A DNA stretch of 64,000 nucleotides. It comes from a virus. Taxonomy: Duplodnaviria; Caudoviricetes. The stretch lies in IMG/VR virus record IMGVR_UViG_3300045391_006539; one strand, 5' to 3'. The notes below the pieces were generated by a model. That model searched no databases. It was not told the DNA's origin and saw only the letters and a list, made by a program, of their open reading frames with translations. This document shows positions 9,511 through 9,620 of the stretch, piece by piece; position 1 is the first letter of the stretch; each line of letters begins with the position of its first letter. The translations under genes were made by a program, and so were the position numbers.

Positions 9511-9620
9511 CTCGCAGTAGCTCAAGAGGAAGAGCGTCCGAAATTCCGAGGGTTACGCTTCGGCGATTCACCCAGTTGGGGAGTAGGGAGATGGTCACTC
9601 GAGGTGACCCTGCGGGACCA
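9511..9620 (+). ncRNA. tRNA-like RNA with encoded CCA and an extended UUCG-capped arm replacing the anticodon arm
   Basis: CTCGCAG/CTGCGGG-A-CCA acceptor; GCTC..GAGC D arm; GGTCA-CTCGAGG-TGACC T-like arm; central about 53-nt arm ending in CGC-TTCG-GCG. Confidence 0.65.

Follow-up and report, generated by a model that had tools for sequence, protein, structure and literature searches.

tRNA-Shaped RNAs in Phages and Bacteria

[quoted passage not shown] Bacterial RNase P recognizes the stack formed by the acceptor and T arms together with an RCCA end. The tRNA-like domain of tmRNA combines a CCA acceptor stem and a T arm with a long helix at the place of the anticodon arm.

The anticodon arm has also been altered in natural and man-made tRNAs. 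For phage tRNAs whose anticodon loops are altered, an escape from host anticodon nucleases has been proposed (van den Berg et al. 2023; PMC10264068). A 3-nt variable loop and a lengthened anticodon stem are found in tRNA-Pyl and in mitochondrial tRNA-Ser (Krahn, Fischer and Soll 2020; PMC7609411), and this review of natural non-canonical tRNAs does not describe an arm of ~53 nt. In the engineered tRNA scaffolds of Ponchon and Dardel, the anticodon stem-loop is swapped for a hairpin and the resulting RNA is matured and stable in E. coli (PMC3753655).

The phage element described here, a cloverleaf core that carries a 53-nt arm at the place of the 17-nt anticodon arm, appears by analogy to work most like such an engineered tRNA-scaffold RNA. 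Both retain the acceptor stem, the T arm, and the D arm (PMC3753655); however, the scaffolds are man-made, whereas the element is natural, has a non-consensus T loop with C54 and A53-U61, and is predicted to be processed. The element resembles the tRNAs of van den Berg et al. in being phage-encoded and in having its deviation concentrated in the anticodon arm, but the loop of those tRNAs still has 7 nt and decoding is preserved (PMC10264068). As the element has no anticodon loop, it could be at most a decoy and not a replacement tRNA. Similarly, the stem of tRNA-Pyl and mitochondrial tRNA-Ser is longer by a single pair and the 7-nt loop is kept (PMC7609411).

The shape of the element also resembles those of the bacterial Y RNA YrlA (RF02553; PMC4201824) and the tRNA-like domain of tmRNA. 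YrlA is likewise a non-decoding mimic in which a tRNA-like elbow is joined to a long irregular helix; however, the free ends of YrlA lie in the long helix and its acceptor-like stem is closed, which is the reverse of the arrangement seen in the element. Assignment to YrlA was rejected, as the Rfam match reaches 20.1 bits against a cut-off of 69 and spans the junction of two tandem cloverleaves. No Ro60/TROVE protein is present among the Pfam families listed for 168 phage ORFs. In contrast to tmRNA, the element has no G3-U70 pair (3-70 is C-G), has a full D stem, and contains neither a coding part nor pseudoknots, and an ARAGORN search of the genome for tmRNA found none. The element falls outside of the tRNA, intron-bearing tRNA, tmRNA, and YrlA classes when tested for membership in each.

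Source Genome and Locus

The stretch of DNA analyzed here (the window) is 64,000 nt long and comes from the minus strand of the 150-kb IMG/VR record IMGVR_UViG_3300045391_006539, which represents a large uncultured phage and is estimated to be 80% complete. A 200.8 kb assembly of the same phage carries the same genes adjoining the element. The phage is present in the sequencing runs SRR12692786 and SRR12692973. The phage proteome includes a family A DNA polymerase, a DnaB-type helicase, a DnaG-type primase, a RecA-like protein, a multisubunit RNA polymerase, a terminase, and a ligase, and family matches are absent for the majority of the phage ORFs. A 1158-aa helicase-like protein (ResIII) encoded at 60252-63728 (-) is split by an intein with an HNH endonuclease.

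The element sits in a 352-nt gap that is flanked by minus-strand genes at 8981-9328 and 9681-10598, the second of which is convergent, lies at the 3' side of the element, and encodes 305 amino acids. Both flanking genes are ORFans, with only the copies from the same phage being matched among 5.8 billion proteins. The gene at 8981-9328 (-) has an adjacent ORFan paralogue at 8602-8988 (-); both products start with MSK-DLDWYW and share 28% identity. The two genes point away from the RNA operon, in divergent orientation, and no relatives of either were found in the protein collection. No tRNA-related protein partner or enzyme was seen among the Pfam families listed for the 168 ORFs or in the genes adjoining the element. 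The features of the locus are collected in Table 1.

Table 1. Features of the tRNA-like locus, given as positions in the window
Feature	Position	Strand	Basis and remarks
Third tRNA-like gene, arm CCCGA-UACG-UCGGG for anticodon arm	6081-6150	+	R2, 25 bits, E 2e-5
Sigma-70-type promoter, TTGACA-16 nt-TATCAT, 11/12	9335-9362	+	Promoter scan
Predicted structured 5' leader, putatively removed by RNase P	9369-9426	+	-17.6 kcal/mol, z = -1.85
Upstream tRNA, 6-bp anticodon stem, 9-nt loop CUCAAGCAA, no encoded CCA	9427-9503	+	ARAGORN; Rfam tRNA, 48.5 bits; R2, 52.6 bits
Spacer between the two cloverleaves, 7 nt	9504-9510	+	Direct reading
tRNA-shaped element, ~110 nt, cloverleaf core without anticodon loop	9511-9620	+	
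Acceptor 5' strand CTCGCAG	9511-9517	+	Direct reading
U8, A9, D arm (9520-9535), and G26, within the segment 9511-9536	9511-9536	+	Direct reading; descriptor
53-nt arm replacing 17-nt anticodon arm	9537-9589	+	Folds; ambiguous (Y or rod)
C(UUCG)G cap within the arm	9558-9563	+	
Variable loop GAU (AGAU in shifted register), 3-4 nt	9590-9592	+	Direct reading; folds
T arm GGTCA-CTCGAGG-TGACC	9593-9609	+	Direct reading; descriptor
Acceptor 3' strand CTGCGGG, discriminator A, encoded CCA	9610-9620	+	Direct reading
G+C-rich hairpin between the RNA operon and the convergent 305-aa gene	9627-9674	.	Fold

The Cloverleaf Core

The original prediction was of a CCA-ending tRNA mimic with a 7-bp acceptor stem plus ACCA, a standard D arm, and a T-like arm with the loop CTCGAGG, and direct reading finds all of these parts in place. 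The acceptor strands CTCGCAG (9511-9517) and CTGCGGG (9610-9616) form 7 bp including one G-U and are followed by ACCA (9617-9620). The CCA is thus encoded in the element, and it is absent from the tRNA located 7 nt upstream. The D arm reads TA-GCTC-AAGAGGAA-GAGC, with U8, A14, G18G19, and A21 at their tRNA positions, and the T arm abuts the 3' acceptor strand directly. All 16 of the 16 base pairs of the core are intact, and U55, C56, G57, and A58 are also kept in the T loop. The T arm departs from the tRNA consensus in having C54 rather than U54 and A53-U61 rather than G53-C61, which could weaken the recognition of the element by tRNA enzymes, and the variable loop is only 3-4 nt long. With regard to membership in the tRNA family, the acceptor stem, discriminator, and CCA, as well as the D-arm features, are those of a tRNA; the G53-C61/U54 signature of the T arm, the anticodon stem-loop, and an adequate score from tRNA finders are absent.

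The core was also probed with a descriptor that requires a 7-bp acceptor, U8, a D stem accompanied by A14 and GG, and a T stem of 5 bp closed by the loop xUCRAxx, and that leaves the distance between the D and T arms free. On the two strands of the 150-kb genome this descriptor has two matches, the upstream tRNA and the element, and 40 genome shuffles that preserve dinucleotides yield no match. Furthermore, R1, a covariance model for which the element was the sole input sequence, recovers ordinary tRNAs of unrelated phage arrays by way of the core, one example being a tRNA-Pro (37.5 bits, E 1e-6). These results demonstrate that the cloverleaf core is real, beyond chance, and tRNA-derived. The exact 19-nt sequence at 9517-9535 recurs in ordinary phage tRNA-Thr, tRNA-Ala, and tRNA-His.

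Structure of the 53-nt Arm

The arm had been described as a long UUCG-capped helix. All of the pairings listed for this helix do exist, but the helix is one of several folds of nearly equal energy and is surpassed by a Y-shaped fold. The minimum-energy fold of the arm alone (-15.3 kcal/mol) is this Y shape, in which a 3-bp base (UCC/GGA) carries the hairpins CCGAGG-GUUACG-CUUCGG and AUUC-A-CCC-AGUU-GGG-GAGU. Shifted rod variants reach -15.0 and -14.8 kcal/mol, compared with -13.6 kcal/mol for the rod as originally drawn. Because 26% of shuffled arms fold equally well or better, the fold of the arm has no statistical support by itself; the whole element has a folding z of -1.35.

The rod of -14.8 kcal/mol contains a symmetric 4x4 internal loop between helices, formed by GAAA (9540-9543) and AGUA (9582-9585). 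We take this loop to resemble the bulged-G (loop E/sarcin-ricin) motif, which is a common protein platform. It occurs in 0.16% of shuffled arms, and it is treated as a lead only, since several motifs had been looked for. A K-turn at the GAA loop was rejected by direct reading, as the opposite strand is AG and not GA. Searches for the arm as a repeat or mobile insert, or as an antisense to the phage genome, yielded nothing significant genome-wide. The 9-mer CTTCGGCGA, which includes the C(UUCG)G cap, is present both in the predicted leader (9403-9411) and in the arm (9558-9566), and this may be due to chance.

Absence of an Anticodon Hairpin and of an Identifiable Intron

ARAGORN, which was among the checks called for in the original prediction, and Rfam both miss the element as a tRNA. 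ARAGORN does not call it at default settings with introns on or off, and an Rfam search leaves it unmatched at the gathering score and, for the 120-nt stretch by itself, even at E values up to 10. A tRNA covariance model (R2), constructed from 45 phage tRNAs and applied with no filters, gives the element 11 bits, in a misaligned match to the 5' half only, versus 52.6 bits for the upstream tRNA. The claim that the arm holds no 7-nt anticodon loop is likewise upheld, as no 5-bp stem with a 7-nt loop was found between the D and T arms, and the sole 5-bp hairpin in this region has a loop of 6 or 8 nt. A class II reading of the element, with a long variable arm, was rejected because nine unpaired nucleotides would precede the first hairpin.

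The original prediction allowed that the element might decode if spliced, and that removal of an intron might give an ordinary tRNA. Every stretch of 15-49 nt inside the arm was considered as a potential intron, and ARAGORN was run on each of the 910 deletion variants. At least six variants were called as tRNAs, the six listed all being 25-nt deletions. The two of these products that were inspected are poor 85-nt models with 2 anticodon-stem mismatches and an unstructured extra region, such that no clean tRNA results from a single deletion among the listed products inspected. No Rfam intron or ribozyme family (group I, hammerhead, twister, pistol) matches the arm. A group I intron was rejected on the grounds that an insert of ~36 nt is too short and has no Rfam match, and a bulge-helix-bulge intron was rejected as this geometry is absent, the loops of the rod folds all being two-sided internal loops. 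The phage is of the bacterial type, in which short protein-spliced tRNA introns are not known. With no canonical anticodon hairpin, no matching intron family, and no clean tRNA among the deletion products inspected, the original claim that the element does not decode unless spliced is borne out, and the element probably mimics a tRNA.

Promoter, Leader, and Flanking RNA Features

The promoter at 9335-9362 is the only site in the 150-kb genome with at least 10 of 12 sigma-70 matches. Shuffled genomes contain 5.5 sites at this level and 0.33 sites with at least 11 of 12 matches. The presence of one site versus 5.5 in shuffles indicates that host-type promoters are depleted in this genome, which fits a phage that transcribes most of its genes with its own multisubunit RNA polymerase. 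The element is located ~150 nt downstream of this 11/12 promoter, from which the start site of the leader was inferred.

The tRNA that lies between the predicted leader and the element contains U5-G68 and G6-U67 wobble pairs. A tRNA from the unrelated 168-kb phage IMGVR_UViG_3300032397_000002 (L010:3511-3588(-)) has the same two wobbles along with a 6-bp stem and a 9-nt loop, GUUCGCAGU, and is the only ARAGORN call in a 10.8-kb stretch of that genome. Such 9-nt loops may mark a type of tRNA that recurs among phages. Downstream of the element, the hairpin at 9627-9674 is a possible two-way terminator with a weak U tract; it was not called in a scan for consensus terminators.

Other tRNA-Like Genes and the Search for Relatives

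The 150-kb record contains no standard tRNA. The phage has three tRNA-shaped genes, and all three deviate in the anticodon arm and have no 7-nt loop. The third of these, at 6081-6150, has a canonical T loop (UUCGAGC), a UACG tetraloop, and no CCA.

Several tRNA-like sequences were encountered in other phages and in metagenomes. Ordinary phage arrays contain uncalled tRNA-likes at L007:6543-6612 and 6614-6685 (+) and at L008:231-303 (-), in which the acceptor, D, and T arms are intact and the anticodon arms are shortened or unpaired (e.g., ACCA-CGGGA-UGGU); two of these genes form a tandem pair of copies with different anticodon arms. A 101-nt tRNA-like that ARAGORN does not call lies on the 162-kb metagenome contig JAABUO010000187.1 (L022:864-964 (-), the same locus as L021:8266-8366 (-)). 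It shares the D arm of the element, next has a 5-bp stem capped by an 8-nt loop, and carries one more hairpin, of 7 bp, ahead of the T arm. In addition, tRNA 5' halves with the same D arm run into non-tRNA sequence at L011:12354-12446 (+) and L013:126-150 (+), the latter being followed by a ribosome-binding site and an ATG. These halves may be interrupted or truncated tRNA genes.

The element itself is a single sequence, with no homologues in the viral, metagenome, and genome collections searched. A blastn search of phage GenBank sequences with the element was empty. In IMG/VR, the T-arm 17-mer found no relatives of the element, and the D-arm 19-mer found only ordinary tRNAs and unrelated tRNA-likes. 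A pattern that joins the D arm to TCGAG across a long gap matched the unrelated 101-nt tRNA-like and a tRNA-His in metagenomes and had no match in genome contigs, where the acceptor-stem pattern gave two chance matches in coding DNA. Phages related via DnaB (41-54% identity) contain neither a tRNA nor a match to the element. The pattern for the 9-nt loop of the upstream tRNA found 118 loci, mostly by chance, and R1 found nothing relevant in the 80 of these loci that were listed.

Proposed Function of the Element

The element is tentatively proposed to be a non-decoding phage tRNA mimic that undergoes tRNA-like maturation and acts through its acceptor end and elbow, an explanation to which we give somewhat less than an even chance. 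This proposal draws on the cloverleaf core, the encoded CCA, the apparently strong promoter, the rules of RNase P recognition, and the precedent of the scaffold chimeras. First, host RNA polymerase would transcribe an RNA comprising the leader, the tRNA, and the mimic from the promoter at 9335-9362. Next, RNase P would cleave at 9511; this cut is expected, given that the enzyme reads the stack of the acceptor and T arms together with the RCCA end. Trimming from the 3' side would then halt at the encoded CCA. The resulting product would be an L-shaped RNA in which the decoding limb is swapped for a longer irregular helix or a forked arm, and because this limb is replaced the element could not read a codon. 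Finally, the mimic may occupy a factor that recognizes the CCA end, the acceptor stem, and the elbow, with candidate factors being a tRNA-directed defense enzyme, an uncharged-tRNA sensor, or a tRNA-processing enzyme. The original prediction suggested that it may be an aminoacylatable decoy, directed for example against tRNA-targeting defense nucleases or the sensing of uncharged tRNA, and this is reasonable as a hypothesis.

Counting against the proposal are the singleton status of the element, the ordinary stability of its arm, the deviations C54 and A53-U61, and the absence of a tRNA-related partner among the Pfam families listed and the adjoining genes. A decoy does not explain the length of the arm, as a plain tetraloop cap such as that at 6081-6150 would suffice. 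A more speculative, and doubtful, extension of the proposal is that the element, the tetraloop-capped gene at 6081-6150, and the tRNA with the 9-nt loop form a set of three mimics, expressed by the host polymerase from the only host-type promoter of the genome, that acts as a decoy or sponge for a host factor that reads the acceptor and elbow, the long arm of the element providing a second surface. The target of such a set may be a tRNA-directed immune enzyme or an uncharged-tRNA sensor.

Alternative Explanations

Two alternatives concern the origin and use of the arm. The element could be a decaying tRNA gene, that is, a former tRNA in which the arm arose by insertion or expansion and which is now transcribed as a functionless relic. 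The pair C1-G72 and A73 hint that such an ancestor was possibly of the proline type, and decay is in keeping with a singleton sequence that has no relatives in the collections searched, with the deviations at T-loop position 54 and pair 53-61, with the short variable loop, with an arm whose stability is ordinary relative to shuffles, and with the uncalled tRNA-likes with defective anticodon arms in the arrays of other phages (L007, L008). However, the complete set of core pairs and the tertiary nucleotides remain intact, CCA is encoded though the adjoining tRNA does without it, the arm has a closing C(UUCG)G cap and a correctly placed basal stem, the unit lies behind the genome's one strong sigma-70-type promoter, and the lack of a 7-nt loop is common to all three tRNA-like genes of the phage. 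The intact acceptor and elbow, the encoded CCA, the promoter, and the two additional deviant genes favor a selected mimic over a dead gene, and decay is considered somewhat unlikely. It is unlikely, too, that the element is a natural tRNA scaffold in which the 53-nt arm is the active module for protein binding or pairing and the tRNA body supplies RNase P maturation, the CCA, and stability. The architecture is that of the engineered tRNA-scaffold chimeras (PMC3753655), the arm is far longer than a cap requires, and one rod fold contains the GAAA/AGUA 4x4 loop that is rare (0.16%) in shuffled arms. These points are offset by the ambiguous fold of the arm and by a motif match that came after several motifs had been sought, and neither a significant complementary target in the phage genome nor an Rfam motif match was found. 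Furthermore, the arm of the third gene at 6081-6150 has no information content, and consequently that gene must act via its tRNA body.

The remaining alternatives dispense with a trans-acting mimic. tRNA-like signals for 3'-end processing are known elsewhere, as in mascRNA/MALAT1, and the element could act in cis as an RNase P or 3'-end signal, or as a protective end, for the upstream tRNA transcript. Its tandem arrangement with a tRNA, both within a single predicted transcription unit, and the G+C-rich hairpin that comes next would suit this role, but tRNAs need no such helper and a cleavage signal would require neither the encoded CCA nor the full D/T elbow, making this explanation very unlikely. 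That the element is a real decoding tRNA from which an intervening sequence is removed by an unknown splicing route appears more improbable still. ARAGORN does report a Gly(tcc) tRNA with a 26-nt intron when introns are on and the threshold is lowered to 80%, and the ATP-dependent ligase of the phage has a weak RNA-ligase match; however, Gly(tcc) is one of 13 calls in 4.2 kb at a threshold that is flooded with false positives, the inspected deletion products have mismatched stems, and no bulge-helix-bulge, group I, or ribozyme match was found. Finally, the sequence would have to be protein-coding if it served as a 50-aa ORF (9591-9743 (+)), which begins inside the T arm, or as part of a 149-aa ORF (9485-9934 (-)). 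In another assembly of this phage the 50-aa ORF was picked up by a gene caller, and GGGGAG lies 7 nt before its ATG with Shine-Dalgarno-like spacing. Nevertheless, this ORF passes through the G+C-rich hairpin and overlaps, in antisense, the end of the convergent gene; the abundance of Pro, Gly, Arg, and Ser in its product is what G+C-rich DNA yields when read out of frame; and the cloverleaf is statistically real. The 50-aa ORF is probably spurious, and a coding role for the sequence is scarcely credible.

Implications

Neither of the usual explanations for phage tRNA genes can apply to this element, as only the non-decoding half of a tRNA is kept, which makes both codon supply and tRNA replacement impossible. 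Genes of this kind are missed by standard tRNA finders. If the proposed tRNA mimic is expressed and stable, it would point to a different use of the tRNA shape by phages, whether for a decoy, for a sponge, or for a natural scaffold that carries another RNA module, and it would provide a handle for finding the host factor that it binds.
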